Shown: positions 149-47,255, counted from the stretch's first letter. The stretch: DNA of 54,446 bases from a virus (IMGVR_UViG_3300022929_000034:1-54446), one strand, 5' to 3'. The notes: a model not told the origin generated them from the sequence alone. Numbers and translations: made by a program.

Positions 149-344
149 GGTCGTAGCTGTCCATGGTCTCTACCATGTTGGAGTAAAAGTCAGGCGACTC
201 TTCCGGGCCGGACGTCTCCATGCTGACTACAGCAGAGCCGTCGGGCATCTCCACAACGTCGGATATGTCGTCAGGCAGCTCAACGTCCGCCGATCCGTCT
301 TCGTTCAGCTCGGGGTCGTTTAGATCGTCTTGTTCTGCCATCAT
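1..344 (-). CDS. Portal protein, N-terminal part (continues across the join into 54298..52192)
   Basis: ATG at 344 (or 341) overlaps the upstream stop. Reads MMAEQDDLNDPELNEDGSADVELPDD...LGMRYVNLLDKD, in frame with ORF 52192..54438; full length about 816 aa. Confidence 0.9.
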   Translation of the reverse strand, partial: MMAEQDDLNDPELNEDGSADVELPDDISDVVEMPDGSAVVSMETSGPEESPDFYSNMVETMDSYDLNSLGMRYVNLLDKDKNAREERDKQYEEGMKRTGLGKDAPGGDNFYGAS

Positions 345-3300
345 TTAACCTTTTTGGAATAGTGCTTCACGCTCATCAACTCGTACCGCATAGCATCGAG
401 GTTTGGTGAAACGGTGACTTGCTCTTTAGTGTAGCCCACGGGCTTGATGCTGCCGCCAGCAGCTTTGGTGATGTTGGGATTGGTCAAATCGTATGTACCT
501 TCATTGCCAATCGCAGATTTAATTTGAGTTGGCTCAAACGCAACCCAAGCATAAGGAGATTCATTTTTGGTAAGAGCGCCATGTTCATACTTTATGCCGT
601 CATAACCTTGGCTTTTTAACCAATTTGTTTTTTCTAAGTCACTTTTGCCGGGTAACTGCCAGTAATAGGGTCCTCCTTCAACCTCAATAAACGGGTTTTT
701 AATTGCCGCGTGAACTGGCATTACGTTTGCCCCTTCCCCCGCTTGTCTAGCATAAACATTTGCCACGCCGGGTGATTCCGCCAAATGAAACCCTGCCCCG
801 TAACCAACGCGTTTCAATTTACTCTTATCAAACTCTTCGATGTTTTTACCCGTGCCGTGGTACAACTGTTTTTTAATTGCGCTGCCTTCCAACATTTTGG
901 CTAGATTGGCTTCACGTTCTGCGGCTGGAAGGATAGTGCGCATTGCAACAGACATTGGCGCATTTGCAGCACCAACAAAACCAATATTTCCCGGCATAAA
1001 CGCTCCATATAACTGCCCTTCATTTGGCGCAGGCAACGATTTTGCATACGCTACCGGGTCCGTCACCAGCCGCTTCAGGTTGCCCGGGATCTTGGACACC
1101 ATGTCGTACGCGCCGCTCAACGACTTTTTGGCGTTGCCGATAGGATCAAATTCTTCTGCCTTGCCAAAATTAAATTGCTCGGACAGGGGTTTCACTTTGC
1201 CGCCGCCAGCCTTGCCCTGCGACGCCACCCAATCCTTGAAAGTCGGCATCTGGTTGGTGTTCACGTAGGTCATGGCCTCGTTGTACGCCTTGTGCAGCGC
1301 AGCCTGCTGGGCCAATTGCTCACGCATGGCAGCAAGCTGTGGACTCAATGGGCGCAGGGGCGGCACGGGTCCACCGTCGGCCATGTGGTTCACGTGCGCT
1401 TCGGCTTTCCACTCGTCGGGAGCCACCGTGCCGCCGCCAGCAAAGCCAAACTTCTTGGCCTTGAACGGCTGGGCCCGAGGCAGGTCCGCAAGCCCTGCGG
1501 CCTTGTTGATCTTGGCCACTTCCTTGTCGGTCAACACGCGGTTAACTTTCATCGACCCGCCAATCAGCCAATTGCCGGTCATGTTCGGGTTGGTCTTGTA
1601 GCGGTAGTGGCCGCCCTTGGGTATCTGGTCGGTGATGTGCGCCTTGACCGGGATTACCCGGCCCTGCGCATTGGTCCCGCGCTTGGTGGCCTCGGCCTGC
1701 CAATCCACGTCGTCCGGCATCTCGACCTCGGCCCACGCGTGATTCTCGGGGCGCACGTCGGGCGCGGTCAACGACGGGTCGGACTTCTCGCCAATGTGGG
1801 TAGCGATGGGCAGATCCCCGGCGTGCCAGCCCGGACGGTACGCCAGTGGGCCAATCTTGGACTTGACCTTGCCCTTGGCCATCTCGCCTTCCTTGGCGTC
1901 AATCCACTTGTCCATCTCCACCGGTGTGTTGGCGTCCACAAACAGCGGGAACAGTTTGCCGGGATGTTTGGGGTGCACGCGGAATAGCTTGTATGCCTTG
2001 ACCGTTTTCTTGGGCTCCTCGCCCTCTACGCTGCCGCCGTCGGCGTACAGCGGCACGCCGTTCTTGGTCACGTCCTCGCGCATCTCTGGGGTGATGGGGA
2101 ACGTATGAACAGGAACTTCCGTTTTTGCGCCTTGATGTGCATAGGCATGCTGCCGTACCATGTCTTGCTGCGCATTAGGCGGTAACGCTTGAAACTCTCT
2201 TTCAGTAAGCCCATGATGCTGTGCCGGGGTGCTGACGATTGACACCATGCCCGGTTGCACTTTTGCGCCGTACTTTTTGCCAAACTGGTTCAGGAAGTTG
2301 GGCACGATCTTGTCGTAGAAGCCCTTCATGCCTTCACCGCCGACTTGAAGGTCAAGGCCAGAATACTCTTGCTCACCATGCCCAATGTCTTTCCCTGCGC
2401 CTTCAATAATGCGCTGCGCCATTTCCTTGCCAACAAGCGGTTCAAGTTCAGATTTTGGAATGTTATCTCGTTTGATAACTTCTTTGCCGCTTTTATTGGC
2501 TGCCAAAGAATATGTTCCATCGTTTTCTTTGCCAACAATCATTGAATCAATATGCTTGGCCAAATTGTACCGATCCGCCTGCTCCGCGCCCGGCGTGATG
2601 GCAATAGAGTCGTAGCCGTTCTCGGCGGCGTGGTGGATCATCTTCTTGAGCGCCATCTCGTGCCAGTTCTTCTTGAACGGGGCATTGGGCACTTTCCCAG
2701 TTAATTTGCCTTGTGCAGCAATCCTTCTCGCGTACTGTTCGCTGTGTCCATCATCGTCAACGCTGCCGTCTGACCATCTGATTCCGTACTCATCTTCAGC
2801 AATTTTGTACGGCTCACCAGATAATCTTTTTGCTTCGCCCTCGGCTCGATAGCCATGTTCGCGTCCTTGCTGGTGCCAGTCGGACTGAAGTTCTTCGATG
2901 TGAAATATCTTCTCGCCGTTGGGCCCGGTACGGTCTTTGGCTCGGACGCTGGCCAGTATGTTGGGCGTGCCACCAAAATGGGTCTCTACGCCTTCAAACT
3001 TGCCTTTTGGGTGTTGCAACAATATCTCGCGGTAGTTCTTTCCACCCGGCAATGTGTATTGCTCGTGGAATGCTTGGTTCTCGTTGTCTCCATACAGCCG
3101 CTCTTCCCGCGTCAAATATCTGGGATCGTCCGTGCCATCATTGTTTGTCACTTTGGGCACCACGGGCGGCTTACTTTTCAGCGCCTCCATGAACTGCGCC
3201 CGCTCCATCTTGGGCAGGTTCATCAGCGCCTGTAGCCCACGGTCCTCGGCCTCCTGCGCCTTGTAGCCGGGCATCTTGCTCAACTCGGTCATGAACTCCG

Positions 3301-3364
3301 CGCCGGTCCCCTTTGGACGGGGCAGCGTTTGGGCCAACCGGTCGATAGGGGAGTAGAAGCTCAC
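341..3364 (-). CDS. Large polyvalent-type virion cargo protein with C-terminal ADP-ribosyltransferase-like domain
   Basis: 1007 aa. N-terminal module (LPGGKNYREILL...IEELQSDWHQQGR...GMKGFYD), middle module (KAYKLFR...AYRPGWH...YRYKTNPNM) and ART-PolyVal-like module (LYHGT...EFD...GAGFHLAESP.VA..YA...VMPV...NP...GYDGI). Modules are separated by AxGG motifs. Confidence 0.7.
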   Translation of the reverse strand: MSFYSPIDRLAQTLPRPKGTGAEFMTELSKMPGYKAQEAEDRGLQALMNLPKMERAQFMEALKSKPPVVPKVTNNDGTDDPRYLTREERLYGDNENQAFHEQYTLPGGKNYREILLQHPKGKFEGVETHFGGTPNILASVRAKDRTGPNGEKIFHIEELQSDWHQQGREHGYRAEGEAKRLSGEPYKIAEDEYGIRWSDGSVDDDGHSEQYARRIAAQGKLTGKVPNAPFKKNWHEMALKKMIHHAAENGYDSIAITPGAEQADRYNLAKHIDSMIVGKENDGTYSLAANKSGKEVIKRDNIPKSELEPLVGKEMAQRIIEGAGKDIGHGEQEYSGLDLQVGGEGMKGFYDKIVPNFLNQFGKKYGAKVQPGMVSIVSTPAQHHGLTEREFQALPPNAQQDMVRQHAYAHQGAKTEVPVHTFPITPEMREDVTKNGVPLYADGGSVEGEEPKKTVKAYKLFRVHPKHPGKLFPLFVDANTPVEMDKWIDAKEGEMAKGKVKSKIGPLAYRPGWHAGDLPIATHIGEKSDPSLTAPDVRPENHAWAEVEMPDDVDWQAEATKRGTNAQGRVIPVKAHITDQIPKGGHYRYKTNPNMTGNWLIGGSMKVNRVLTDKEVAKINKAAGLADLPRAQPFKAKKFGFAGGGTVAPDEWKAEAHVNHMADGGPVPPLRPLSPQLAAMREQLAQQAALHKAYNEAMTYVNTNQMPTFKDWVASQGKAGGGKVKPLSEQFNFGKAEEFDPIGNAKKSLSGAYDMVSKIPGNLKRLVTDPVAYAKSLPAPNEGQLYGAFMPGNIGFVGAANAPMSVAMRTILPAAEREANLAKMLEGSAIKKQLYHGTGKNIEEFDKSKLKRVGYGAGFHLAESPGVANVYARQAGEGANVMPVHAAIKNPFIEVEGGPYYWQLPGKSDLEKTNWLKSQGYDGIKYEHGALTKNESPYAWVAFEPTQIKSAIGNEGTYDLTNPNITKAAGGSIKPVGYTKEQVTVSPNLDAMRYELMSVKHYSKKVK

Positions 3365-5097
3365 AGTGGGCGCTCCGTCATTTGGATGTCATGGGTCGAT
3401 CCGCCGCGCGCCATGCGTGGCCCTGTAGGGCCGGGGCGCTGTGGCATGGCCTGTGGGTTCGGCCGCATGGCCTGCATGGCTTGGCCTTGGGGCGTCAATG
3501 CAAGGATGTTGCTTTGGGGTGCCCCGGGCCGTGGTGGAGGGGCTGGTGACTGTCCGAGCATAGCTGGTGACTGTCCGAGCATAGCTGGTGGCTGCCCGGG
3601 CGGTGGCGGCAGGCCACCCTGCGGCTGGCCGGGCTGCATGGGCATCATCTGGTTGCCGGGCGTCAGGGGCTGGAAGTCCACGCCACCAATAGGTAAGCCC
3701 TCGCCGTTGCCGCCGTTGGGCGACACGAACGCTTTGATGGGCAGGTCGGGTGCCTCATTGACGCCGACGTCCTTGATGTTCATCAAGTTGGGTGCCTTGT
3801 GCATCATCAGGCTGGCCAACATGGTGTCCTTGTCGGGTTCAACATGGCCGCCGTCAGCATATCCAACGGCTCCGCCCTCTGCTTTGCCAGCATAGGCTTT
3901 GCCGGTCAACAGCATGTCGCGGGCGGTCTCAGGTGTTACGCCAAGGCGATGCGCGGTCATCATGATGTTGCGGGCCAGCAGCTCTAGCTTGCCTGCGCCA
4001 ATTGGTGTGTCCACGCCGGTCTGCGGTGCAAACGTGCCCCATGCGCGTCCTTGCGCTGGGCCAGCCTCAAGGCCGAGCTTGGCGGCGATCTGTTCGCGCC
4101 ACCACGGCGCAAGCAAGGTCATCTCAGGGTTGGTAACACTCGCCCCGGGGATTGCCTCTCGGCCCTTGACCATTTTGCGGTTGCGGGTGTCGGCCAATCC
4201 AACGCCACGGCTCCAGTGCGCGTCACCAACAGGAGTTGCTGTTTGGAAACCGGTCTCCGGTACGCCGCTGGATTGGATGTAGAGCGGCACCTTGGGCGTT
4301 TTCATGGTCATTTCACCAGACGCCAGATACTTGTCCATTGGTCCGGCTTGGGCGGTCTTGTGGTACGCGTGGCCGGGCACGTTGCGGATGTCTGCCGGAA
4401 ACCTGCGAGTGCGCTTGTCCTCGGCTTTACCGGCGTGCTTCAGGAACTCACCAAAACGCCCCTGAGTGCTCATCATGTAGGCCGCTGTTCCACGCGGAAT
4501 CTCGGTCATGACCTCGCTGGCCGGAGATGCCATGCCCATCAAATGGTTGAGCTTGTCGTACTCACGTATGGCGTTTTCCTTGCCAATGAGCTGCGCCATG
4601 CGCTGAAACGCCGGGTCCATGATGTACCACGGGTCCATGCCTTGGATCAGCGCGTGGTGCTTCTCGGCCTCCCCTAGCACGTCAAGAATGCGTTGCTCGT
4701 TTCTAGACGTCATCACCTTGGCGGCGGCTTCCGATCCTCGTGGCTTGGCGGCGGCACCGGGTAGAGTGCCCGGCAGGTTACCCTTACGGCCCTTGCCCAT
4801 TTGGAACAAGTCCTCGCGGGTGACGCCGAACAAACGCTTGAGCGATGGATCTTCTGGCTCTACGCGGGCAGCCGCTTCTTTGGCGATCACGTCCGGGCGT
4901 TTGTATATCCCGGGAAACGCGTTGCGCTGGGGGTTGTTGACGGTCTGGGTTTTAGGGTCTAGCGCTGCCTTGGCGGCTGCCACGCGGGGGCTGTCAACAA
5001 TATTGCCGTCATCGTCATCATCCGGTTGGCCACCGCCTTTTAGATGCCGAGTCCGGCTCATCAGCTCACGCAGCATCTGCTCGATTGACAGTTTCAC
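3361..5097 (-). CDS. Putative virion cargo protein with HhH DNA-glycosylase-like core and P/Q-rich tail
   Basis: 578 aa. Spaced motifs WY...ASP...K...VGDAHWSR...AQGRAW resemble phage HhH-glycosylase-like proteins; four AxGG-type motifs flank the core. Confidence 0.5.
   Translation of the reverse strand: MKLSIEQMLRELMSRTRHLKGGGQPDDDDDGNIVDSPRVAAAKAALDPKTQTVNNPQRNAFPGIYKRPDVIAKEAAARVEPEDPSLKRLFGVTREDLFQMGKGRKGNLPGTLPGAAAKPRGSEAAAKVMTSRNEQRILDVLGEAEKHHALIQGMDPWYIMDPAFQRMAQLIGKENAIREYDKLNHLMGMASPASEVMTEIPRGTAAYMMSTQGRFGEFLKHAGKAEDKRTRRFPADIRNVPGHAYHKTAQAGPMDKYLASGEMTMKTPKVPLYIQSSGVPETGFQTATPVGDAHWSRGVGLADTRNRKMVKGREAIPGASVTNPEMTLLAPWWREQIAAKLGLEAGPAQGRAWGTFAPQTGVDTPIGAGKLELLARNIMMTAHRLGVTPETARDMLLTGKAYAGKAEGGAVGYADGGHVEPDKDTMLASLMMHKAPNLMNIKDVGVNEAPDLPIKAFVSPNGGNGEGLPIGGVDFQPLTPGNQMMPMQPGQPQGGLPPPPGQPPAMLGQSPAMLGQSPAPPPRPGAPQSNILALTPQGQAMQAMRPNPQAMPQRPGPTGPRMARGGSTHDIQMTERPL
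3542..3590. repeat. 21-bp tandem duplication encoding PAMLGQS x2
   Basis: gctggtgactgtccgagcata twice plus a partial third copy. Confidence 0.9.
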
Positions 5098-6590
5098 GTT
5101 GATTCCTTTCGTACCGGTAACGCGCCGAATACTGCCGCCATGGGCATGCTGGTGTTGCGCTGGAGTATGCCACCGTAGCCGTGCTCGTGTGCCATGCGCT
5201 CTAAGTCGCTGAATGCGCCTTGCGGGTCAGCGATGCCCTGATTGTATTTGGCCGTCCATGGGGTGATGTTGTGCTCGATGGCCAGTCGGTGCAGCTTGTC
5301 GGGGTCTGCCGCCACGTCGTACAGGTCGCTGGCGTGCGCGGTGTAACGGTGGGGCCCAAGGCCGGGCTCACCACGTTCGGGTTTGCCAACGTAGAAGTGC
5401 GTCCGGTTTCGGATCGCGCCGGGCTCGGACAATCGTTGTTCTTCCCGGCCCTTGATGCCGGTCCCGTAGTAGCGCGGGTCGGTTTGGACTAGGCTGGGCT
5501 CGTTGCTGAAGTGGGTCAGCTCGGCGCTGGTCGGGTTTTTGGGTTTGATCAGGTGCCGGATGTAGGACGGAATGGCCCCGGCGTAGTCACCCCGGTTCAT
5601 CTCAGGCGGCAGCAGGATAGGCGATTGCGGCCCATAGGTAAAGTGGTTTGACAGCAGATCTTTCTTCAGCTCAAGGAAGCGCTGGGCCTGCGCGGTGTCT
5701 CGGCTGCGCATGGCATGGTAGGCGGCCTCATCCAGCTTGCGGACCTGCTGCTTGATCTCAGCGTTCAGCCCGGTGTAGTTGACCACGCTGTTTTGTCCAC
5801 GAGTCTCGGTGGTCATGGCGGCCTGCGCCAGCGGGCTGTACATGCCGGAGTGCGCCGCCCATGCCTTCTCTTCGCCCTTGGGTCCAAACTCGTTGCCGTG
5901 CAAGGCGTGGCCGTACAGGTCGTGGACCGCCCGGAACATCTCAGTGTCGTTGAGCCCGGTGGCCGGATCGACGTTGTTCATCATGGGGTGGGGCTCACCG
6001 CCTTGAAACACGTACAGGTGCTTGTTGCCATGCACGTCACGCAGCATTTCCTTGCTGGAGCTGTAGTTGCCCTCGCCGTTGCGGTGAAAGCTCATGTTCA
6101 GGGGCAGCGTGTCAAACTGCTGCTTGGTCTCACGGTTCAGATGGCCGTAGGCTTTGGTTACCAGCTCGTCGTAGTCGCGGGCATCGCCCACATGTTTGGG
6201 CATTTTGCGCTTGTAGGCGTCATAGACGGCCTTTTTGTACTCCGGTCCGCCCTCGGTGGCCAACATGAAGGTGCGGCCTATGGGGGCCTGCTTGCGCAGG
6301 GAGCTTTCGCTATTCTCAATCGGGGCGTAGGCCCGGCCAAGGTTCTGTCTGGTGTAGGTGTCGGCGGCCCGGTGAAATGGCGTCGCGCCGGTCTGGATCA
6401 GGCTGCGGATTTCCTCATCCGAAGGTGGTTGCGGAACTGGGCCTCGTGATAGGCCGCGTGCATCTTGGGTATCGGACCCACCCGTTTCTCGTAGTCCTTG
6501 AGCTCTTGCGCTATTTTTTTCAATAGAGCGCGGGCGGACTCGCCAGAATGGTCCTTCTTGTGCTGTGTCATATTGCGCCTCAGTGTTCAT
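5094..6590 (-). CDS. Putative zincin-like metallopeptidase (HDxxGH...E) fused to a possible ART-like domain
   Basis: 498 aa. FRAVHDLYGH...FGPKGEEKAW, then a C-terminal THFS...DP..YGTGIKGRE...RTHFY...LYD...GYGG module. Confidence 0.45.
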   Translation of the reverse strand: MNTEAQYDTAQEGPFWRVRPRSIEKNSARAQGLRETGGSDTQDARGLSRGPVPQPPSDEEIRSLIQTGATPFHRAADTYTRQNLGRAYAPIENSESSLRKQAPIGRTFMLATEGGPEYKKAVYDAYKRKMPKHVGDARDYDELVTKAYGHLNRETKQQFDTLPLNMSFHRNGEGNYSSSKEMLRDVHGNKHLYVFQGGEPHPMMNNVDPATGLNDTEMFRAVHDLYGHALHGNEFGPKGEEKAWAAHSGMYSPLAQAAMTTETRGQNSVVNYTGLNAEIKQQVRKLDEAAYHAMRSRDTAQAQRFLELKKDLLSNHFTYGPQSPILLPPEMNRGDYAGAIPSYIRHLIKPKNPTSAELTHFSNEPSLVQTDPRYYGTGIKGREEQRLSEPGAIRNRTHFYVGKPERGEPGLGPHRYTAHASDLYDVAADPDKLHRLAIEHNITPWTAKYNQGIADPQGAFSDLERMAHEHGYGGILQRNTSMPMAAVFGALPVRKEST

Positions 6591-6622: not shown

Positions 6623-8038
6623 CTACGCGGCATAGGGATTCTCGCGGCTTGGGCCGCCCGCGTCAATGTAGTCCTCCTCGTCCACCCACTCGCGGGGGAA
6701 GTCGATGCTGATCCAGCCCGCATCGCGCAAGAAGCGCAGGGCTTGGCTGATGCAGTCCACGTACTCGTCGTGCGCCGTGTTGGGGAACGAGCATATCTGG
6801 CTGACCATGCCCTCGGCCCAGTCCCGCACGTAGCCCTTGCGCACGCTGCTCTCCGGCACCCATACGCGCCCGGCCTTGATGATGTTGGCCACGATGCTCA
6901 GGCGCTGGCTCTTGTCGGCCCGCCCCGGGTTGTAGCCGCGCACCGGCAGCCCGGCCCGCTGCAGGTCCTGTATCAGCGAGATGCCTGCCGCCTTGTCCTC
7001 GACCAGCAGCAGGTCCACGCGCTTCTTCTCGCGCCCCTCGCCGTACACGGTCTCGTACTCGTCGATGATCTTGGGCCGCAGGTCGGGGTAGGTCAGCTTC
7101 TCCTGCCAGCAGTCGATCACCATCACGCACATGCCGCCGTCCAGCGGCTTGAACACGCCCAGCGTGATGTTGCCGGTCGGGTCGCTGGCCTCCTTGTCCT
7201 TGTAGCCGCAGTCGTAGGACTGGATCACGTACTCGAACTTGGGGAAGGGCTTGCCGTCTGGCCACAGCCGGAACCAGTCCCGGTGGACGATCCCGCCCTC
7301 CTCGGGGTCAATAATCTCTGCATGTATCTCTTGCCGACCAAGGTTGGTGCCCTCGTACTGCAGGATCTGCTTTTGGAACGACGGGGCTAGGTTGGCGATG
7401 TTGGCGTAGGTCGAGGCGCGCGTGATCACCACGTCGTCGCCCTCGCGGCTGATCAGGTCCAGCACCACGTCCTTGGGCTTGGGCGTGGTCGAGCAGATCA
7501 GCTTGGTGCGCTGGCCCAGCCGGATGCCGAACATGATCATGTCCCAGCTCTCCTGCAGGTAGTCCCACGCGGCCAGCTCGTCCAGCCACCCGCCGTGGAA
7601 CTGCGGGCCCCTGAACCTTTCGGGCTCGGACGCCGGGATGCCCTTGATCAGGCTGCCGTTGACCAGCACCAGCTCATGCAGCGACTTGTTGTAGTCCTTG
7701 ATCAACACCGGGGGGATCACCGATAGCAGCCCGCTATCGCCCTCGAAGCAGGTCGCGCGCAGGTCACTCGATGTTGGGGCCGACACCAGCCACCGGGTGT
7801 TGGGGTTCTGCCATGCCCACCAGCCTAGGTTCTCGGCGGCCGCGCGCGTCTTGCCCGCGCCCCGGCCTGCGACCATCAAATGGATATTCCACCAAGTGCC
7901 GAGCGGTTCGAGCTGGTGCTTGTGCGCGGCCAGCAGCCACTTGGCGCGCCAGTCGAACGCGGCGCGGTGCTCAACGGGCAGCTTGGCGTACTGCGCCCGC
8001 ACCTGCGGGTCGCGCAGCAGTTCAGCTAGGTTGCCCAT
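6623..8038 (-). CDS. terL: Terminase large subunit
   Basis: Walker A AGRGAGKT, RGPQFHGGWLDE (Walker B), C-terminal nuclease with SYD, VEDKAAG and HDEYVD. Start placed at ATG 8038 rather than 8098. Confidence 0.95.
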   Translation of the reverse strand: MGNLAELLRDPQVRAQYAKLPVEHRAAFDWRAKWLLAAHKHQLEPLGTWWNIHLMVAGRGAGKTRAAAENLGWWAWQNPNTRWLVSAPTSSDLRATCFEGDSGLLSVIPPVLIKDYNKSLHELVLVNGSLIKGIPASEPERFRGPQFHGGWLDELAAWDYLQESWDMIMFGIRLGQRTKLICSTTPKPKDVVLDLISREGDDVVITRASTYANIANLAPSFQKQILQYEGTNLGRQEIHAEIIDPEEGGIVHRDWFRLWPDGKPFPKFEYVIQSYDCGYKDKEASDPTGNITLGVFKPLDGGMCVMVIDCWQEKLTYPDLRPKIIDEYETVYGEGREKKRVDLLLVEDKAAGISLIQDLQRAGLPVRGYNPGRADKSQRLSIVANIIKAGRVWVPESSVRKGYVRDWAEGMVSQICSFPNTAHDEYVDCISQALRFLRDAGWISIDFPREWVDEEDYIDAGGPSRENPYAA

Positions 8039-8525
8039 CGTGGCGCAGCAGCTCGATGTTGGTGAGCATCGCGTCGAACGTGACGAAGTCCACGGCAATC
8101 TTCACCGGAGCATCAGGGTCGCCCGCCAGCACCGTCTTGTCGCCGTACTTGCGCGGGTTCCACTTGGCCAACAGCTTTAGGCGCGTCTCAATCTGGTTCT
8201 TGCGCCACGCGATGCTGCCGGGGTCGTAGCGCTTGTTGCCCTGCTCGTCGAACACAGCCAGCGGCTCTGTATCCGCAAGCGCTGCGCACTCGTCGGCTAT
8301 AGCATCGTGCCCCGTCTCCCGTGCGTGCGCGATGCGCTGGGCGAATTCCGCGTCTTCTTGCTCCCAGTCGTACAGCACTGTGTTGTGCGGCATGCCCTTC
8401 TGGCGGCAGAACTCACGCAGCGTCTTGCCCTGCGCAATCCACGCCACCAGATCAATCTTGATCTGCTCCTTGTTGGGATAGGGTGAGATGCCCTTGGGCC
8501 TGCCTATCTTCTTACCAGTTGCCAT
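8022..8525 (-). CDS. terS: Terminase small subunit
   Basis: GRP...WIAQGKTLREFC...W...FAQRIAHARE.G.D...KWNPRKYGDK pattern; directly upstream of terL. Confidence 0.9.
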   Translation of the reverse strand: MATGKKIGRPKGISPYPNKEQIKIDLVAWIAQGKTLREFCRQKGMPHNTVLYDWEQEDAEFAQRIAHARETGHDAIADECAALADTEPLAVFDEQGNKRYDPGSIAWRKNQIETRLKLLAKWNPRKYGDKTVLAGDPDAPVKIAVDFVTFDAMLTNIELLRHDGQPS

Positions 8526-35182: not shown

Positions 35183-35824
35183 TTAAGAGTCCTGTGCTAC
35201 TGCTTGGCGGTCACCGATGCGGAGCTGGTCTTCGGTCTTCAGCGCGGCCATCGCGGCGTCAAACATCTGCGACCACACGGCCAAGCGCGCGTCGTCTTTG
35301 AGGAAGGGCGCGGTCTGCTTGAGCGTGCCAAAGAGCAACGCATTGGGCGCGTTGCGGGTAAGCCAATTGGTTTGGTTGCTGGACGACAACGGAGTCAGCC
35401 GGGTGTAGCAGAGCGCCTCAAAAGCAAAATTGGCGCTGGGCGTCGGGGCAATGAACCAGTTGTCGTAGTCGTAGTCGGCGTAGTACAGCGGCGTGCCGGT
35501 GGCGGTCACGTCGGGCGCGTAGCTGCTGAGGTACTCCAGCTTGCGCAGGTACACCGGCTGCTTTTCACCGCTGGCAAGAGTGAGGGTCATGGATACCGTC
35601 TTGCGCCACAGCGCGGGCTTGGCGATCACCGGGTTGCTGGCGGTCATTGTGCCGTCTGCCACGATCATTTGGCCAAGGGTCTTGATGTCCTGCGCGATCT
35701 CAAACTCCGCCAGCATGACGGCGGTGGGGATGAAATTGACGACCGCAGCATCGCTACGCTCCAGATACTGGAGCACCAGAGTGCTCAGGCCATCGTAGGT
35801 CAGCGCGTAAGCGGTCGTAGCCAT
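35183..35824 (-). CDS. Tail tubular / adaptor protein
   Basis: TYD.L...V..YLER...IAPTP...NWL..NAP.ALL.G.L pattern of podovirus adaptor proteins. Confidence 0.7.
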   Translation of the reverse strand: MATTAYALTYDGLSTLVLQYLERSDAAVVNFIPTAVMLAEFEIAQDIKTLGQMIVADGTMTASNPVIAKPALWRKTVSMTLTLASGEKQPVYLRKLEYLSSYAPDVTATGTPLYYADYDYDNWFIAPTPSANFAFEALCYTRLTPLSSSNQTNWLTRNAPNALLFGTLKQTAPFLKDDARLAVWSQMFDAAMAALKTEDQLRIGDRQAVAQDS

Positions 35825-38314: not shown

Positions 38315-39925
38315 CTAGTTCAGCTTTAGGATAACAATGCCGGAACCGCCATTTCCTCCAACGCCTATGTTAGAACCAGCGCCACCACCGCCGCCTGTAT
38401 TGGCTGTTCCAGCAGTACCAGGTGAACTATTAGATGGTGGCGTACCAGCCGCACCAGCACCACCACCGCCTGTTCCACCAGCGCCGCTAGTAGCAGGGGA
38501 GCCACGATTGTCGCAAGAACCTCCACCACCTCCAGCATAGGTGACGCTACTGCCAGTTATGCTGCTTGCAGAGCCATTGCCGCCGCTACCCGCTGGGCCA
38601 TTAGCTGTGCCTGTACCGCCTACGGCTCCAGCACCACCGCCACCACCAGCAGCCGCATCAACACCGCTACTGTTACTTCCATTACCACCATTGTTTCCTT
38701 GAGATGGTGATGTTGATGGAGTGTTACCAGCGCCTCCCGTATAACCCGAAAATAGTCCTGACCCACCACCGCCAGAACCACCAGATATGCCATTGTTAGC
38801 GTTTGTTCCACCCCCGCCACCACCAGCAGAAGTTATGGTGCTAAATGTGGAACTAGTGCCGCTGTTGCCATTAACGCCGCTATCAGCGCCTCCAGTTCCT
38901 CCAGAGCCAACCGTAATTGTGTAGGTTGTTCCTGCGGTTACTGAAAATGCTGTGCCAGTTCTAAAGCCACCAGCACCGCCACCACCGCCACGACCTCCTG
39001 CGCCTCCTGCACCACCCGCTACCACCAAGTAGTCAACAGTAGTGATGCCTGCTGGTGCTTTCCATGTTGCAGTAGATAGAAATTCAATTGCTGTGCCTTT
39101 TGGCACGGTGTAGGACAAGATGACAATTCCGGAGCCGCCATTGCTTGCTGCTGATGCACCATACCTATTGCCACCAGCACCACCGCCTGTGTTGGCTGTA
39201 CCTGATGTTCCGTTAGCGCCTGAGTCAACGCCACCATTGCCACCGCCGCCTGTGCCGCCTGTGCCGCCTGTGTAACCAGCACCAGCGCCGCCGCCACCGC
39301 CGCCAGCATAGGTAACGCTAGAGCCAGATATAGAAGATGCTGTACCAACGCCGCCAGCACCGCCTACTGTAAGGGTTCCACTACCGCCAACTGCGCCAGC
39401 ACCGCCGCCACCACCAGCAGTAGAGTTAGCAGAAGAGCCGCCAACCCCACCGTTATTTCCTTGACTTGGAGATGTGGATGGCGTATTTCCTGCGCCACCA
39501 GTTGACAAAAGTTGACTATCACTTCCGCCGCCAGAACCGCCCGCTATGCCGTTACCACCGGGTACGCTTGGATAACCATAACGTCCACCAGCACCACCGC
39601 CAGATGAAGTAATAGTGGAAAAAATAGAATCGCCTCCAGATGCGCCTGTGACACCGTCACTTGTTGCACCTGCGCCGCCGGAACCAACTGTAATTGCGTA
39701 ACTTGTACCGGGAGTTACAGATAAGCTAGTTCCAGTACGAAAGCCTCCAGCACCGCTACCGCCAACTCCCGTTGCCCTTGTTCCTCCACCACCGCCTGCT
39801 ACAACAAGGTAATCTACCTTAGTAACACCCGATGGACATTTCCATGAGCCGGACGCAAGGAACTGCTCAATTACTAGGTAGCCTCCCGCGCTGCGGGTGA
39901 TGAAAAAGTTTTTAGACGCAAACAT
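38315..39925 (-). CDS. Glycine-rich tail fiber / receptor-binding protein with two tandem domains
   Basis: Two repeats, each starting W..P.G.T.VDYLVVAGG and ending NGGSGIVIL; start ATG 39925. Confidence 0.8.
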   Translation of the reverse strand: MFASKNFFITRSAGGYLVIEQFLASGSWKCPSGVTKVDYLVVAGGGGGTRATGVGGSGAGGFRTGTSLSVTPGTSYAITVGSGGAGATSDGVTGASGGDSIFSTITSSGGGAGGRYGYPSVPGGNGIAGGSGGGSDSQLLSTGGAGNTPSTSPSQGNNGGVGGSSANSTAGGGGGAGAVGGSGTLTVGGAGGVGTASSISGSSVTYAGGGGGGAGAGYTGGTGGTGGGGNGGVDSGANGTSGTANTGGGAGGNRYGASAASNGGSGIVILSYTVPKGTAIEFLSTATWKAPAGITTVDYLVVAGGAGGAGGRGGGGGAGGFRTGTAFSVTAGTTYTITVGSGGTGGADSGVNGNSGTSSTFSTITSAGGGGGGTNANNGISGGSGGGGSGLFSGYTGGAGNTPSTSPSQGNNGGNGSNSSGVDAAAGGGGGAGAVGGTGTANGPAGSGGNGSASSITGSSVTYAGGGGGSCDNRGSPATSGAGGTGGGGAGAAGTPPSNSSPGTAGTANTGGGGGAGSNIGVGGNGGSGIVILKLN

Positions 39926-40881
39926 TATGCAAACGCCTGTGCTGCATTGCCGTACCAAACGGAACCATTAGCCACAAAGCTGATGATGTCTACCGCCGAT
40001 GCGGTTGCGGTAATGGTTGGCGCAGTACCGCCGGGCCATTTAACACCGGTGAATGTCGCGGTGGTCATGCCGGTTGCGGCTTGCGTCAGAATCAAAATGA
40101 ATGACTTACCGGCAGTTGCTGTAGGCATAGTGAACGTGCAGGGCGTAGATGCTGTCAATGTTGCAGTCAGCACAGTGCCAGTTGTAAGAGCCAAGGTGCT
40201 GGATGCGCCAACTGTGCCCACTGCTTGCAAGGTTTCAACATAGTTGGTGACGGTGGGGTTGGTCAGTGTCTTGTTGGTGAAGGTCTCACTGCCAGCAAGC
40301 GTAGCCAAAGTGCCCGTTGTAGGCAAAGTCACCGCAGTTGTTCCGCTAACCGTTAACGTCGTGCCAAAGCTGCCCGAAATGGTAATGGTACTTGCGGCGT
40401 TATTTGCTACACCGGTTCCACCATTTGCTGCGCCCAACGTACCGGAAATATCTGCAGTAAGCGAAACCGCGCCAAATGTAGGCGCACCAGCCGCGTTGCC
40501 GTGCAGCACCGTAGTGGTTGTTCCGGCAGCAGTAGTAGCCAATGCGGTTGTTGTACTTGCGTAGGTTATCCCGTACTGCGTAAATGCGCTGGATTGCCCT
40601 GTGCCGCCTGCGGTATTGACTAAAGTCCCCGCAACTGTTACCGCGCCCGAGGTTGCCGTGGCTGGCGTCAAACCAGTCGATCCAAATGAGATTGTGCTGA
40701 CGTTGGTCGTTGTGGCGTTGCTTGCCAGCAAGGTCACCGTGCCGCTGCTGTTTTTGTAGTACAGCTTGCCGTCGTTGGTATTGAGCGCAAGCTCCCCAGC
40801 AACGAGGTTTGCAGACAGCGGAACAGAAGACGCCGTGGCGCTGTAGTACAGCGATATTGGGGTGTAGCCAGTTGCAGCCAT
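39925..40881 (-). CDS. Tail fiber protein
   Basis: N-terminal L.AGELALN..DGKLYYK anchor, T-rich repeats, C-terminal VKWPGGTAPT...VDI.SF. Confidence 0.8.
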   Translation of the reverse strand: MAATGYTPISLYYSATASSVPLSANLVAGELALNTNDGKLYYKNSSGTVTLLASNATTTNVSTISFGSTGLTPATATSGAVTVAGTLVNTAGGTGQSSAFTQYGITYASTTTALATTAAGTTTTVLHGNAAGAPTFGAVSLTADISGTLGAANGGTGVANNAASTITISGSFGTTLTVSGTTAVTLPTTGTLATLAGSETFTNKTLTNPTVTNYVETLQAVGTVGASSTLALTTGTVLTATLTASTPCTFTMPTATAGKSFILILTQAATGMTTATFTGVKWPGGTAPTITATASAVDIISFVANGSVWYGNAAQAFA

Positions 40882-42347: not shown

Positions 42348-42706
42348 TATGTGCTCGTATTGCTAGGTGGGCTTGGGGCAATCGTATCCTTGTTTCCGGT
42401 CTGCGTAGGCGTCTGCGTGTTCTGCTCGGTCGAGATCTGAAACTCGTTGTTTCCACCGGTTATCAGGTAATTGTCGCCCGCATCCACGCTGACATCTGGC
42501 CGTGGGAAACGCAAGTTTATCCGCTCGGTCTGGCGGGCGGCCAGCCGGTATGGGTCCAACGTATCCATGCAACCCTGATCGCACACGCGCAGGCCGGGGA
42601 AGTTAGGGTCCGGCCCAAGCTGGACAAACGCACGCTTCATCTTGCACCGGTCGCATACCGCAATCGCAAGTGACGTCAGTCCTTCGGTGTTAAGGAATCT
42701 TGGCAT
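42347..42706 (-). CDS. Conserved virion morphogenesis protein with CxxC
   Basis: IAVCDRC...GLRVC..C.D..DP...PRPD. Confidence 0.7.
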   Translation of the reverse strand: MPRFLNTEGLTSLAIAVCDRCKMKRAFVQLGPDPNFPGLRVCDQGCMDTLDPYRLAARQTERINLRFPRPDVSVDAGDNYLITGGNNEFQISTEQNTQTPTQTGNKDTIAPSPPSNTST

Positions 42707-43779
42707 CAGCGTGTGTACACGGAAATGTTCGGGCTGTAGTAGATCGGCGACTTGTCTCGCTCTTCTTGCTCGGCCATGTTGAAGTACTTGTCCGCTTGGT
42801 TTTCAAGGTAGCCGATGCGGTCAGCCTGCACCGCAGGCAGCTCCAAGCTCATGCGGTGCGAGAGCATCATCAGGATAGCCTCATACCAACGCTGCGGGAT
42901 CTCTAGTTGGCCGGAAAGCGACCCGACGTCCATGATCTGGCGCGAGTACCAGACCGTCATCTGGACAAACGGGCTTGATGGGACCGGCCACAGGTACATG
43001 GTCGGCTGCGGGATCGTGCGGTCAAACCAGAACTGGAAGGGCTGGTTGGCCGTGAATTGCTTGTTGGGCAGGTTGGTGTAGTCGTCGCGGTTCAGGCGCG
43101 CCATCTGGAGCTCACGGGCCATCGTGCCAAAGTACAGCTCACGCAGGGCAAGCGTCGTGCCGCCTGTAGCGACCATGCGGTAGTAGGCCACGTTCTGCCC
43201 GGGGTCGATGTCCGTCCACACCCACTGGTTGTCCGCCACCGCCACGCTGGTGCCCGTATCCAAAGTGTTCCACGTGGAACCGTCGGTCGAGTACTGGAGC
43301 GTGTAGCTCCACGTGGCCGACCCGCCGCCAGAGACGTAGGGCAAGAACCCGATGGAGCCGACGTACTGCGGGTTGGTGGTCCCAAAATTGATTGCGATGT
43401 TGCCGTTGGCCGATGTCTGCTGGCAGTAGGTATTGACGTCGCCGTCGTAGACGTTGGCCACCGTGCCGCCTGCGGACGAGGTGTAGGCACCATTGGGACG
43501 GTCCATGGTGCGGTACAGCACGTTCAGAGCGTCAATCGCGCCCACGGGCAAGGTGTAGATGTACTGGTCGGCGTTCAGGCCGATGACCTTCTTGCTGATG
43601 GCCCAGTAGTTGATGCCCATGTTGGCAATGTTCGACAACAGGATGAACAGCGATTCCTTGGCCGACTGGACCTGCTCGACCGTCAATTCCTCGGCCAGCT
43701 TCCCGCACCGACGCGCACCGTGGTCGATGAGCTGCTGGACCGTTATAACGGTCTGTCCAACGGTTCCAGAGTAGGCCAC
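42706..43779 (-). CDS. Head-to-tail connector with inserted beta-sandwich module
   Basis: GTG start; A.ESL..LL...N.GIN.W...R..RDDY.NLPNK...P.QFWFDR...LWPVP; central QYSTDG.TW...YYR insert. Confidence 0.7.
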   Translation of the reverse strand: MAYSGTVGQTVITVQQLIDHGARRCGKLAEELTVEQVQSAKESLFILLSNIANMGINYWAISKKVIGLNADQYIYTLPVGAIDALNVLYRTMDRPNGAYTSSAGGTVANVYDGDVNTYCQQTSANGNIAINFGTTNPQYVGSIGFLPYVSGGGSATWSYTLQYSTDGSTWNTLDTGTSVAVADNQWVWTDIDPGQNVAYYRMVATGGTTLALRELYFGTMARELQMARLNRDDYTNLPNKQFTANQPFQFWFDRTIPQPTMYLWPVPSSPFVQMTVWYSRQIMDVGSLSGQLEIPQRWYEAILMMLSHRMSLELPAVQADRIGYLENQADKYFNMAEQEERDKSPIYYSPNISVYTR

Positions 43780-43787
43780 GGGCGTCC

Positions 43788-44477
43788 TTAGAAGTTAGGG
43801 TTTTTCTTTGCGGGCTTGTGGGTCGACACACCGCACGCAGCGAGGCTGATTTTGCCACCCTTGGCGTACTGTTTTACCGCGCCGCCTTTTTTCATCGGCC
43901 CCGGTCTATCGTCGTACGTTGACCGGTATCGTTGAGAAACCGCTTTATTTTCTGGGCTGAGGGTATCAAACGTGCTTAACGGAGGTTCTTTTTCACGGTT
44001 AAATGTTGGAAAAAGACCGTCTTCGCTAAATTCTTTTTTAAGTACCGCTCCAACTACGGGACGGGCCATTTTCAACGCTCGGATAGCAGGGTTCAGTGAA
44101 GCCAACCCCAAACCCGCCTCAAGAACAGCTTCTTTGTCTACGTCCTTGTAGATGTCAACATCACGTCCTTGGTCCACCAATGAACGTGCTCTTAGTTTAG
44201 GGGTTTCATCTTTGGAATATGTGGCCCCTTGGGTTGTAACGGGCGCACCGATAGACCTGCTCATGCTTGGCAAAGCATCCGTGCTTGTCTGAATGTCTTC
44301 TGCCTTTTTTGAGCTTTCGCCCGGGTCTTTCCTGCGAACCAGACCCTTGTCCATGTTCAGCAGGTCGCGCAAAGTTTTGTCGTTGCCGTATTGCTTTTGA
44401 AAATCGGCAAGCTCCTTTGCGGAGACCTTAGCCTTCCCGTTTACGACTTCACGATCTGGGTTTGGTGTATACGCCAT
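43788..44477 (-). CDS. Putative internal head protein with C-terminal KKGG/AKGG tag
   Basis: Ends MKKGGAVKQYAKGGKISLAACGVSTHKPAKKNPNF. Confidence 0.7.
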   Translation of the reverse strand: MAYTPNPDREVVNGKAKVSAKELADFQKQYGNDKTLRDLLNMDKGLVRRKDPGESSKKAEDIQTSTDALPSMSRSIGAPVTTQGATYSKDETPKLRARSLVDQGRDVDIYKDVDKEAVLEAGLGLASLNPAIRALKMARPVVGAVLKKEFSEDGLFPTFNREKEPPLSTFDTLSPENKAVSQRYRSTYDDRPGPMKKGGAVKQYAKGGKISLAACGVSTHKPAKKNPNF

Positions 44478-44486
44478 GCTTGTTAC

Positions 44487-44852
44487 TTACCAATTTGATT
44501 TTTTCTTGCTGGGCGTGCAGGTAGACACCTTGCAGTCCTTTAGGCTGATAGCGCCGCCTTTAGCTTTTATTAAGGGGGTTTGACGCACCTGAGCCGCCTG
44601 CCTACGTGCCCGCATTCCTTGAGCGGTATCGTCTTGCGTAAACCCAGCTTCTTGCTCCTGAGCTTTGGTCACATCATTAAACCCTTGGTCGGTTGTGGCA
44701 TCAAATTTTGCCTTCAGACGGTTGTACGTATCCGCGTCTTGCAACTCGGTTCTTTTTTGAGAACCCAAGTTGGTGTAAAAATACTGCGGTTGGCCGGTAG
44801 CCTTATTTACCTCAGTGGTAAAACTATATTGCGGTGCGTAATCATCAGCCAT
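44487..44852 (-). CDS. Putative internal head protein with C-terminal AKGG tag
   Basis: Ends KAKGGAISLKDCKVSTCTPSKKKSNW. Confidence 0.7.
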   Translation of the reverse strand: MADDYAPQYSFTTEVNKATGQPQYFYTNLGSQKRTELQDADTYNRLKAKFDATTDQGFNDVTKAQEQEAGFTQDDTAQGMRARRQAAQVRQTPLIKAKGGAISLKDCKVSTCTPSKKKSNW

Positions 44853-44861
44853 GGTTACTCC

Positions 44862-45113
44862 TTACCAGCCGGGACAGTTCCAGCGTTGCATAGATGCCCG
44901 TGAACGGCTTCCTTTTTCGCTCTTCTCGGCGACAGGACCCATGCGGGCACAGAATGAGTCGCGCCGGGCACCGCCTTGCGGTTGAGGTGCTTTCAGATGC
45001 GATCCGGTTTCACTGTTGTACTTTGCTCGGCCTTTGGCTGTGAGCCCTGCGCCTTGCTTGGCAGGCAGCTTTTCACCACGACCGATAGCCAAAGACGGGT
45101 TCTTTTTTGCCAT
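44862..45113 (-). CDS. Small basic protein of the 'RR.SFCARM' phage family
   Basis: GLTAKGRAKYN..TGS.LKAP...RRDSFCARM...RWNC. Confidence 0.75.
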   Translation of the reverse strand: MAKKNPSLAIGRGEKLPAKQGAGLTAKGRAKYNSETGSHLKAPQPQGGARRDSFCARMGPVAEKSEKGSRSRASMQRWNCPGW

Positions 45114-45116
45114 GAT

Positions 45117-45566
45117 TCACCAGCAAGACTTTGTGGCCTTGCCGCCTGTTTTCATTTTGGCGGTTTTTGCTGATTGCTTGAAGGCGTCAGCAGTTGGCGC
45201 ACCTTTGCTACCAGCTCTGCGCATTTTTTCGCCAGAGCCTGCAGCAATTCGCTTACGTTTTGCTTGAATGTTGGCATACAAGCCACCTTCTTTCATTTTA
45301 TTGGCCGAAAATAATTTTTCCACAATTTGCACCCGCTCAGGTTTGGTTGTTGCGTGACTGACAATTTTCAAACGCTCTGGTTTGCTCTTGCCCTCTTCGT
45401 AGAACCCGGCTTTTTTCAAAGACTGGACTACCCCGCCATTTTTCATTTTGTCGGCCTTGACAAACTCTTTGCCGACCTTCTGCGGAACGCCACCAAACCC
45501 GCCCTTGGTGTGGGCTGCGGCCTCCATCAGGCGGTGTTGGGCTGGTGACTTGCTTGGCATGGTCAA
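45117..45566 (-). CDS. Basic multi-module protein punctuated by MKxGG motifs
   Basis: MPSKS..Q.R.M.A module, MKNGG, insert, MKEGG, GLYANI.AKR.RI..GSGEKMR module, MKTGG. Confidence 0.75.
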   Translation of the reverse strand: MTMPSKSPAQHRLMEAAAHTKGGFGGVPQKVGKEFVKADKMKNGGVVQSLKKAGFYEEGKSKPERLKIVSHATTKPERVQIVEKLFSANKMKEGGLYANIQAKRKRIAAGSGEKMRRAGSKGAPTADAFKQSAKTAKMKTGGKATKSCW

Positions 45567-45973: not shown

Positions 45974-45981
45974 AAAAATCT

Positions 45982-46010
45982 CCAAAGAAAGCGGGGGCCG
46001 AAGCCCCCAC
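45982..46010 (-). terminator. Rho-independent terminator
   Basis: GUGGGGGC-UUCG-GCCCCCGC-UUUCUUU. Confidence 0.8.
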
Positions 46011-46016
46011 TTGTTT

Positions 46017-47255
46017 TTAGCAAGCGCGCCCGCCTGTTTTGCGGGTCATTGTGGGGTTTACAAAGCCCCGTCCTGCCCCGGCATTTGGCCGGATGCCAAG
46101 CAGCCGTTTGACAGAGTCCATCACCGGAGTAGCTTCGTTCTCACGACGGGTGACGTCTTTTTCAGCCTCCCGACGACGAGCTTCCCGCTCAACAGTAGGA
46201 TCATACCCATCATCCGCCGTGGGCATGCCGCCCTCAGCCTTATGGACTACCTTGCCGCCCTTTTTAAAGGTGCCGGACTGCAGGCTGTTGGCCACCGGCC
46301 GCGAGACCGGCTTGCGAGGCATTGCTACGGCGTGGCCAGCGTTGTTAACACTGCCCCCCGTAGCGAAATGCTTTTTTGCAGCACCGCCTTTTTTGTAGCC
46401 GCCGCCGTTGCCTTCTTTGACGCCGCCAGTGGTGGTGTTGGTCTTGCCGGGAGGAGTACCGTCAGCCGGGCGATTTTCCCAGTTGACTTCGCCGCCCTTC
46501 TTGAACCCACCAGCGTTGGCCATACGCACGCCGCCAGTGCCGCTTGCGCCATCTTTCTTGGCTTGGTAGACTTTGGTGGTCTTGTACGAGCCCGACGAGG
46601 TTTCTGAGGGGATGGAGCCGCCGGTGGCGTAGCCAGCCGGTTTGCCCATCTTGACCTCGCCAGTGCCGTGCGCCTTGTCGGTTTTGTCGCCGTCAACCAC
46701 CTTGGTCGTGCCGCCTTTGCGCAGCTTCAGCTTGGTGCCCTTGCCGCCCATGTGCTCTTGCATGTCGTGCTGCTTGAAAGCCTTCTTGATCATGGCCTTG
46801 TCTTGGCCCATGTCACCGCCTTTTGCCATGCCGCCTTTTTTCATGGCCGGGGCCATGGGGGCTGCCATAGGGGCTGCGGGAGCCGCCATTCCGGGACGCA
46901 TAGCGCCACGTTGGGCCATCATGCGCATCATGAGCGCCTTCTTCATAGCGGGGCTCATCATTGCGCCAGCGCCCATGGGAGCGCCCATAGGGGCACCCAT
47001 CATGCCGCCGTCAGCCTTTTTGGCCACGCCGCCCTTTTTGGACATCAGCATGGGTGCCTTCATGGACTTGCGACGCTCCATGATGGAAGGCTTCTTGGGA
47101 GACTTGCCGGGAGGGGCAAATTTACCGTCAGCCGCTTCCATCGGCATGGTGCTCTTCATGGCGGAGTGGCCAGCAACATGGCCGCCTTTTTTGAGCTTCA
47201 GCTCAACTGTAGGCTCAGTGGTCATCATTTTGACCATTGGTTTGAATTGGCCCAT
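46017..47255 (-). CDS. Lys/Gly/Met-rich core protein with about 13 xxxGG motifs
   Basis: 412 aa low-complexity basic protein; AAGGAG RBS. Confidence 0.8.
   Translation of the reverse strand: MGQFKPMVKMMTTEPTVELKLKKGGHVAGHSAMKSTMPMEAADGKFAPPGKSPKKPSIMERRKSMKAPMLMSKKGGVAKKADGGMMGAPMGAPMGAGAMMSPAMKKALMMRMMAQRGAMRPGMAAPAAPMAAPMAPAMKKGGMAKGGDMGQDKAMIKKAFKQHDMQEHMGGKGTKLKLRKGGTTKVVDGDKTDKAHGTGEVKMGKPAGYATGGSIPSETSSGSYKTTKVYQAKKDGASGTGGVRMANAGGFKKGGEVNWENRPADGTPPGKTNTTTGGVKEGNGGGYKKGGAAKKHFATGGSVNNAGHAVAMPRKPVSRPVANSLQSGTFKKGGKVVHKAEGGMPTADDGYDPTVEREARRREAEKDVTRRENEATPVMDSVKRLLGIRPNAGAGRGFVNPTMTRKTGGRAC

Follow-up and report, generated by a model that had tools for sequence, protein, structure and literature searches.

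What can a short Gly-Gly peptide be doing in seven late phage proteins that otherwise look so different? The question is raised by the virus genome IMGVR_UViG_3300022929_000034 from IMG/VR, whose whole length of 54,446 nucleotides (nt) was analyzed and is referred to below as the window. An earlier note on this sequence had pointed out a motif of approximately [FYMLK][AKRE]xGG in proteins encoded between positions 341 and 47255, and had interpreted it as a modular address and/or cleavage site for packaged cargo. The window is the whole genome of a complete podovirus-like phage (CheckV completeness of 100%). The motif is real, enriched, conserved, and located at module boundaries, and it is a protein-level signal. 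Its carriers are predicted virion-internal or late proteins, which are presumably packaged. We tentatively consider the motif to be a lineage-specific short linear signal at the joints of a head-internal protein set, where it may mark sites of cleavage.

All seven open reading frames (ORFs) were found on the minus strand at the coordinates given, together with every pentapeptide listed for them. The window contains 68 ORFs with a total of 17,224 amino acids (aa), which were delimited by a longest-ORF heuristic without a gene finder. The strict pattern [FYMLK][AKRE]xGG has 33 matches in these ORFs, and 30 of the 33 are in the seven proteins, which comprise 3,213 aa, or 19% of the proteome. When the residues were shuffled within each protein, with the composition retained, 8.1 ± 2.8 matches were obtained, with a maximum of 20, and none of the 2000 shuffles reached 33. 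Each of the seven proteins exceeds its own expectation: 5 matches versus 0.77 (341..3364), 4 versus 0.45 (3361..5097), 4 versus 0.38 (29542..31695), 2 versus 0.10 (43788..44477), 1 versus 0.02 (44487..44852), 3 versus 0.23 (45117..45566), and 11 versus 1.03 (46017..47255). The last protein is indeed rich in the motif, although the strict pattern matches 11 of its 19 GG sites and not about 13, as had been counted. Of the remaining three matches, one (LRQGG) is in the SNF2-like helicase and two (both YAGGG) are in the fibre protein 38315..39958. The reported near-absence of the motif from replication proteins holds. If only GG sites are considered, the upstream context is present at 30 of the 62 sites in the seven proteins (4.8 expected from composition) and at 3 of the 183 sites in the other 61 ORFs (5.8 expected). 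A composition artefact was rejected based on the shuffles and these GG-conditional counts.

Since the pattern had been chosen after the window was seen, related genomes provide the independent test. In five complete relatives with a G+C content of 45–54%, 25, 30, 26, 32, and 25 matches were detected, whereas 500 shuffles of each gave means of 6.7–7.9 and maxima of 16–20. The matches fall in homologues of the same protein families. The consensus can be written as (K/G)-hydrophobic-[A/K]-x-G-G-x-[V/I]. The site logos carry their information N-terminal of the GG pair and two residues past it. The values for positions −3 and −2 are 0.63 and 0.56 bits for 346 sites and 0.96 and 1.33 bits for 802 sites, compared with 0.20 and 0.24 bits for 738 control GG sites of structural proteins. 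Within the seven proteins of the window, V or I stands two residues past the GG pair in 17 of the 30 motifs.

A signal of this kind could in principle act in the nucleotide sequence, as an internal ribosome-binding site or start, or could be a by-product of composition. A Shine–Dalgarno-like GGAGG could encode the GG pair, eight strict motifs start with Met, and the carrier proteins are glycine-rich. However, none of the 33 motif GG pairs begins with GGA, and therefore none reads GGAGG. GGC GGC encodes 17 of the 33 pairs, and this is in line with the genome, where GGC accounts for 881 of the 1636 Gly codons. A Shine–Dalgarno-like sequence precedes 2 of the 8 Met-type motifs, compared with 67 of all 413 internal Met codons and 25 of 44 real starts. 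The internal-start reading was rejected on these codon and upstream data, and the shuffles described above never reach the observed count. An origin in nucleotide signals or composition is thus extremely improbable.

The place of the motif can be seen best in the proteins encoded upstream of the portal gene, which qualify as polyvalent proteins as defined by Iyer et al. (2017; PMC5512222). The 1007-aa protein has the hallmark ART-PolyVal domain (Pfam PF18760, aa 832–957, E = 1.2e-19, 71.9 bits with a cut-off of 31.2), and the KAAGG motif at aa 967 comes after it. Three separate PHROG domain matches were found in this protein. One of them is phrog_30118 in its full length (194 positions, aa 453–642), between the motifs at aa 440 and 641, and another is phrog_7348 at aa 100–282. 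Thus, at least two unrelated domains are united in one polypeptide, and the architecture varies among relatives. A search for cultured relatives with the 1007-aa protein gave 10 records with partial domain matches. The tagged proteins of the window have no embedded peptidase, as judged by HExxH or HxxEH strings and Pfam peptidase families; this feature is not obligatory for the polyvalent family. HExxH strings were seen by eye in the polyvalent proteins of two relatives (L026 and L035).

The neighbouring 578-aa protein matched no Pfam or PHROG family. It holds a module conserved across relatives (aa 400–578), in which the motif, a short helix, NEAP, PIGGVD, a long low-complexity stretch rich in Pro, Gln, and Gly, MTPQGQA, and again the motif follow each other. 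The NEAP/PIGGVD/MTPQGQA module occurs in the pre-portal proteins of most relatives and is the most constant part of an otherwise variable cargo. The 498-aa protein encoded at 5094..6590 gave no PDB match and no usable ESM Atlas match. In relative L037, a protein of 881 aa contains its domain together with additional modules, linked by a motif junction, and a motif joint of L037 stands where the window has the boundary between the 498-aa and 578-aa genes. Very different sets of domains are found in the pre-portal proteins of relatives, with the motif at the joints, often as a tandem pair separated by 3–4 residues. In the polyvalent proteins of the window and of relatives, the last motif is immediately followed by a conserved C-terminal tail, of which there are a few types. 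The expectation that the motif would be conserved while the intervening domains vary was thus borne out, and domain matches and the architectures of relatives agree with the claim that it falls in linkers or beside terminal peptides, outside the domains.

The phrog_30118-type domain makes it possible to separate the motif from the domains that it flanks. Among its 376 database homologues (E ≤ 1e-5), 30 were inspected, selected for long contigs or informative Pfam tags. None of the 29 homologues with a delimitable core has a motif within it. Motifs are found in the flanks of 10 of the 30 and are absent from 20, four of which have 81–123 extra residues; stand-alone homologues of the domain do not have the motif. 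The same domain occurs in gp38 of Roseobacter phage CRP-212 (1203 aa), where even a looser pattern gives one match. Since the motif is absent from domain cores and stand-alone homologues and is rare in CRP-212 gp38, it belongs to the linkers and to this phage lineage rather than to the domains.

The small basic proteins show the same arrangement in miniature. Four small modules recur in this lineage: phrog_16759-type, phrog_16028-type, DUF6321, and a fourth N-terminal module. In relatives, at least seven different arrangements of the fused modules occur, always with the motif between adjoining modules, and elsewhere, in the window and in other relatives, the same modules are separate genes that start or stop at the joint point. 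In the 149-aa protein of the window, the joints are MKNGG (aa 41), MKEGG (aa 91), and MKTGG (aa 138), followed by a short tail ending in Cys-Trp. The DUF6321 module has its own gene in the window, and in relatives it is fused behind other modules via the motif. Modules encoded separately in the window or close relatives have no motif, yet they stay in the same gene cluster. These modules are also separate small genes in a cultured roseophage, a pelagiphage, a Stenotrophomonas phage, and phiKZ-like phages; in pelagiphage HTVC168P, they are flanked by the scaffold and capsid genes. In the small tagged proteins, a short basic tail whose final residue is Trp, Phe, or Cys follows the last motif. 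The 229-aa protein matched no Pfam or PHROG family. Because several tagged proteins have small modules and tails in common, their description as unrelated proteins was overstated. As a separate observation, DUF6321 modules at protein C-termini in this clade end in Cys-Pro/Ser-Gly-Trp.

The 717-aa protein is a predicted internal or ejection protein. It has a tape-measure-like stretch at its C-terminus (phrog_6090), and the motifs at aa 602 and 622 lie just upstream of the conserved C-terminal module. The motif is present 15–45 aa upstream of this module in the window and in all five of the five relatives; one close locus of this family was reached by a peptide-pattern scan and the others by whole-record searches. 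The tagged genes had been assigned to three separate loci, and in fact there are two. A direct terminal repeat of 147 nt (2–148 and 54300–54446, 99% identity) indicates that the genome ends overlap, though the record is listed as linear, and the minus-strand ORF 3–344 is the 5′ part of the portal gene 52192–54446, in frame as worked out from the coordinates. Because of this overlap, the polyvalent genes at 341–5097 are located directly upstream of the portal gene and form one head module with the genes at 43788–47255.

The 412-aa protein represents the hallmark family of the clade, and IMG/VR contains at least 591 relatives. According to the looser pattern, 39 distinct homologues have 8–14 motifs each. 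In an alignment of 43 sequences, the N-terminal 25 aa, which end in a motif, are nearly invariant, and several GG pairs with their flanks are invariant down to approximately 46% alignment identity (37% by BLAST). The AlphaFold2 (AF2) model based on these 43 sequences has a mean predicted local distance difference test score (pLDDT) of 49, with 262 of the 412 residues below 50, including most of the motif-rich part, and the protein is predicted to be largely disordered. Invariant GG pairs in a protein modelled as disordered argue for specific recognition. A beta-solenoid or another repeat fold was provisionally rejected, given the absence of strands in the motif region of this low-scoring model. 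It can also be noted that members of this family usually end in a Cys a few residues past the last GG pair.

Fused and split forms are equivalent, the motif occupies every joint and delimits terminal peptides, and it is under strong constraint in a disordered protein. Together, these points suggest a specifically recognised separator, and cleavage fits them best. The set would be built like beads on a string and would include the polyvalent cargo enzymes, the ejection protein, the small basic modules, and the disordered basic 412-aa protein. An endopeptidase would recognise the motif and cut at or beside Gly-Gly during or after head assembly, which would separate the modules and take off the conserved terminal peptides. 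The packaging of the tagged proteins, the existence of a factor that reads the motif, and cleavage as the form of this reading are all points that we infer. Known Gly-Gly-specific proteases read residues N-terminal of the cut, which is the side that carries the motif information. A precedent is given by polyvalent proteins, which are predicted to be processed by peptidases in the account of Iyer et al. (2017; PMC5512222). Of the two functions named in the earlier note, the address is weakened because separately encoded modules and stand-alone homologues lack the motif, and for cleavage no protease was recognised. The conserved terminal peptides delimited by the motif are better address candidates than the motif itself. 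Likewise, the C-terminal tails of the small tagged proteins, DUF6321 modules, and the 412-aa family are candidates for the real assembly signal.

Several observations weigh against cleavage. Searches of 47 ORFs against Pfam, covering all ORFs of at least 100 aa except 38315..39958 (compared with PHROGs only), revealed no peptidase at E ≤ 0.01; no peptidase by name appeared in 30 PHROG queries, and HExxH is absent from the tagged proteins of the window. The capsid protein has no propeptide, and some podoviruses mature without a protease, their capsid proteins also being free of a propeptide. Tandem motif pairs 3–4 residues apart would be odd for cleavage sites. The hydrophobic residue is one place further from the GG pair than in the consensus of adenovirus protease, coronavirus PLpro, or double-glycine leaders, and V or I two residues past the pair is conserved as well. 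Cutting the 412-aa protein at all its sites would leave peptides of 5–50 aa. In addition, a tblastn search with this protein against GenBank phages gave only MW202545.1, which is uncultured.

Since no enzyme was found, motifs often occur in tandem, and the register is unusual, two readings without a protease retain some weight. The motif might be an uncleaved, hairpin-like docking peptide and might tether or recruit the internal proteins by binding to a component present in many copies inside the capsid (such as the capsid, scaffold, or portal protein), with the 412-aa protein as a multivalent binder. This is somewhat less probable than cleavage. It requires no protease, and it agrees with motifs conserved in predicted-disordered regions, with their 8–14 copies in the 412-aa family, and with a motif that tracks the phage lineage and not the domain, as in CRP-212 gp38. 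The capsid protein, with 87–99% identity (18 listed of 35 relatives), is far more conserved than the 412-aa protein (37–88%) or the scaffold-like protein (43–95%), which would fit many binding constraints. However, separate modules without the motif stay in the gene cluster, so that the motif is not needed for each module, stand-alone domain homologues do not have it, and a single address per protein would suffice, whereas the motif is found at every joint. The other reading is a passive joint, in which a helix-capping stop and a Gly-Gly hinge have spread with the modules by duplication and recombination, and the modules fold or thread through the tail singly. Ala or Lys and a hydrophobic residue before the glycines, with a hydrophobic residue after them, resemble helix C-capping patterns. 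In the AF2 model of the 412-aa protein, helices 58–69 and 150–167 each end right before a GG site, and fused and split forms are indeed equivalent. Nevertheless, we consider this reading unlikely: the GG pairs and flanks stay invariant in the disordered protein over the identity range given above, the context occurs at just 3 of the 183 GG sites elsewhere in the proteome, and ordinary linkers do not hold a seven-position consensus over hundreds of joints. Still less probable is a nucleic-acid-binding "KGG box" analogous to the RGG box, whose lysines, aromatic residues, and flexible glycines would bind packaged DNA; the basic proteins would then condense it, and the cargo would ride along. The small proteins and the 412-aa protein are indeed basic (isoelectric point (pI) of 9.1–10.8), K is the commonest residue two and one places before the GG pair in the 412-aa family (40% and 27%), and related small modules lie among the head genes of a T7-like pelagiphage. 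On the other hand, the residue before the GG pair is often acidic in the polyvalent proteins (KAEGG, YADGG, MADGG; E makes up 16% there), and the 717-aa carrier is itself acidic, with a pI of 4.9.

Returning to cleavage, its more specific form would be a tailed-phage counterpart of adenovirus-style maturation, in which an endopeptidase of an unrecognised family cuts one Gly-Gly consensus across the head-internal set. This form is doubtful. The enzyme would come from the conserved head module or would be borrowed from the host; polyvalent precursors and the disordered 412-aa protein would give rise to free effectors and to a mixture of small, basic peptides travelling with the DNA. If this were true, new cargo could be added by splicing between two joints. 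The 182-aa protein is the only universal protein without an assigned function in the head module that has invariant Asp, Glu, and His, and it was considered as a candidate reader of the motif. Its family comprises 443 representative clusters (E ≤ 0.001), and P52, D72, G81, E111, M126, H130, and P134 are invariant in 40 diverse members. A cysteine protease was rejected, since Cys63 and Cys109 are not conserved in these members. Searches with the 182-aa protein revealed no named Pfam or PHROG family, neither its sequence nor its profile matched a PDB entry, and all ESM Atlas matches were to viral clusters without a name; its AF2 model (pLDDT of 46.6) is too poor for a fold search. The Cpn10-like protein was also considered as a disguised protease and rejected, because its sequence pattern fits GroES. 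A complex prediction for the N-terminal 100 aa of the 412-aa protein with the scaffold-like and 182-aa proteins had a score of 0.00 and weighs neither for nor against an interaction.

Table 1. Tagged proteins and neighbouring late genes of the window, with the motif positions (aa) and the matches on which the assignments are based.
Feature	Coordinates	Strand	Basis and remarks
Polyvalent cargo protein, 1007 aa	341..3364	−	YADGG 440, FAGGG 641, MADGG 661, KAGGG 718, KAAGG 967; conserved C-terminal tail past the last motif
Cargo-type protein, 578 aa	3361..5097	−	Motifs 19, 405, 413, 562; short C-terminal tail past the last one
498-aa protein	5094..6590	−	0 motifs; phrog_3170 at aa 169–276
Large terminase	6623..8098	−	Pfam Terminase_6N (E = 3.3e-24) and Terminase_6C; upstream of the cargo genes
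Predicted internal/ejection protein, 717 aa, pI 4.9	29542..31695	−	Motifs 7, 494, 602, 622
SU10-type adaptor	35183..35824	−	Clear Pfam match
Fibre-like protein, 547 aa	38315..39958	−	phrog_2295 (E = 8e-100); 34% glycine, 82 GG dipeptides
Adaptor-like protein	42706..43779	−	Weak SU10_adaptor match (under the Pfam cut-off), preceded by an F5/8 type C (discoidin) domain
Basic protein, 229 aa, pI 9.5	43788..44477	−	Motifs 195, 204, then a Cys-containing tail with an aromatic end
Basic protein, 121 aa	44487..44852	−	Motif 96, then the same tail type, ending in Trp
DUF6321 module ("C"), 83 aa	44862..45113	−	Pfam DUF6321 (E = 1.5e-14); no strict motif
Small-module string, 149 aa	45117..45566	−	phrog_16759-type at aa 3–43, phrog_16028-type at aa 92–139
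Basic protein, 412 aa, pI 10.3	46017..47255	−	11 strict motifs; 16% glycine; hallmark family of the clade
Major capsid protein, 304 aa	48306..49220	−	Pfam Phage_capsid_4 at aa 6–298; no N-terminal propeptide
Conserved head-module protein, 182 aa, function unassigned	49822..50370	−	Present in 5 of 5 complete relatives
Scaffold-like protein (putative), 319 aa	50373..51332	−	Acidic N-terminus; coiled-coil-like by eye; phrog_28737 (no assigned function)
Cpn10/GroES-like protein, 151 aa	51342..51797	−	Pfam Cpn10 (E = 6.5e-4, under the curated cut-off); phrog_3188 co-chaperonin GroES (E = 1.1e-5)
Portal protein	52192..54446; 5′ end continues into 149–344 across the terminal overlap (ATG at 344)	−	phrog_1216 (E = 4.5e-22)

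The late genes of the minus strand are arranged in the following order: large terminase, 498-aa, 578-aa, and 1007-aa proteins, portal, Cpn10-like protein, scaffold-like protein, two proteins without an assigned function (182 and 190 aa), major capsid protein, 320-aa protein, 412-aa protein, a run of small proteins, adaptor-like protein, fibre-like proteins, lysis genes, SU10-type adaptor, tail proteins, and four large internal proteins. The stop codon of the 1007-aa gene overlaps the start of the portal gene. Replication genes are on the plus strand at 16–24 kb and encode a DUF2800 nuclease, an Enc34-type single-stranded DNA-binding protein, PolA, and an SNF2 helicase according to Pfam. The same gene order is found in MW202545.1, an uncultured relative of 57.5 kb from GenBank. 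The longest ORF at 31937–35181 (1049 aa) is probably two genes, a 407-aa tail protein (33958–35181) and a protein of approximately 673 aa that starts near 33958. This is indicated by the start of the PHROG match at aa 377 and by MW202545.1, which has genes for 406-aa and 672-aa proteins there. The sequence 38315–39958 is the sole repeat family in the window DNA apart from the terminal repeat. The Cpn10-like gene, located between the portal and scaffold-like genes, is conserved in relatives and suggests that head assembly depends on the host chaperonin. The scaffold role of the protein at 50373..51332 is assumed from its position and composition. The identity of the capsid proteins in the relatives (loci L003–L082) points to unusually strong constraint on this protein; the lowest identity across relatives is 43% for the scaffold-like protein, 56% for the 182-aa protein, and 37% (by BLAST) for the 412-aa protein.

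The way in which proteins are loaded, organised, and released alongside DNA is understood for a few model phages only. In the clade described here, with at least 591 IMG/VR contigs, a simple portable joint recurs in enzymes, in small basic modules, and in an ejection protein. If the motif is a processing or docking signal, it would provide a sequence rule for predicting the packaged proteome of uncultured phages, a handle on a new protease or receptor, and a natural template for the loading of foreign proteins into capsids. Even if it is a plain hinge, it documents the fusion and fission of tiny, widespread modules (DUF6321, phrog_16028-type, and phrog_16759-type) at a fixed joint. Full-text literature searches, which did not extend to supplementary files, found no description of the motif. 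The window presents a set of consensus-marked, putatively head-internal and polyvalent proteins whose motif is not described in the literature searched.

Among the closest known systems are the polyvalent proteins as described in the main text of Iyer et al. (PMC5512222). The proteins upstream of the portal gene resemble them in being large and multidomain, in being encoded next to head-morphogenesis genes, in having ART-PolyVal, and in being proteins of a kind predicted to be packaged, delivered, and split into domains. In that account, processing is ascribed to embedded zincin-like, assemblin-like, or other peptidase domains, with zincin-like MPTase domains in approximately 36% of the members. 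In contrast, the proteins of the window have no HExxH, and their joint motif is common also to small basic and ejection proteins; neither "glycine" nor "linker" occurs in that main text.

The maturation systems of T4, phiKZ, and adenoviruses are functional analogies only. T4 gp21 and phiKZ-type proteases cut at sites ending in Glu (L/I-x-E in T4) and have a dedicated head-module gene; in T4, the address is confined to the N-terminus. Like the T4 capsid-targeting sequence with gp21 and the phiKZ system, the motif would be a short signal that is common to many unrelated head-internal proteins and delimits terminal peptides. However, it ends in G-G, no prohead protease was found in the 47 Pfam queries, and the only conserved N-terminal peptide comparable to the T4 targeting peptide is that of the 412-aa family. 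Double-glycine leaders are N-terminal export leaders with a longer amphipathic consensus, cut after Gly-Gly by the C39 peptidase of an ABC transporter. They are similar in having Gly-Gly with hydrophobic residues upstream, whereas the motifs here are mostly internal or C-terminal, and the Pfam queries gave no C39 or ABC transporter match. Adenovirus protease cuts at (M/I/L)-X-G-G, with the hydrophobic residue at P4. In the window, the hydrophobic residue is three places before the first Gly, which would be P5 if the cut follows the second Gly, and no clan-CE cysteine peptidase was found in the same Pfam queries. Adenoviruses belong to a different virus realm, and the likeness is one of analogy: one Gly-Gly-type consensus extends over basic DNA-associated core proteins, a scaffold-like protein that is cut many times, and other internal proteins.

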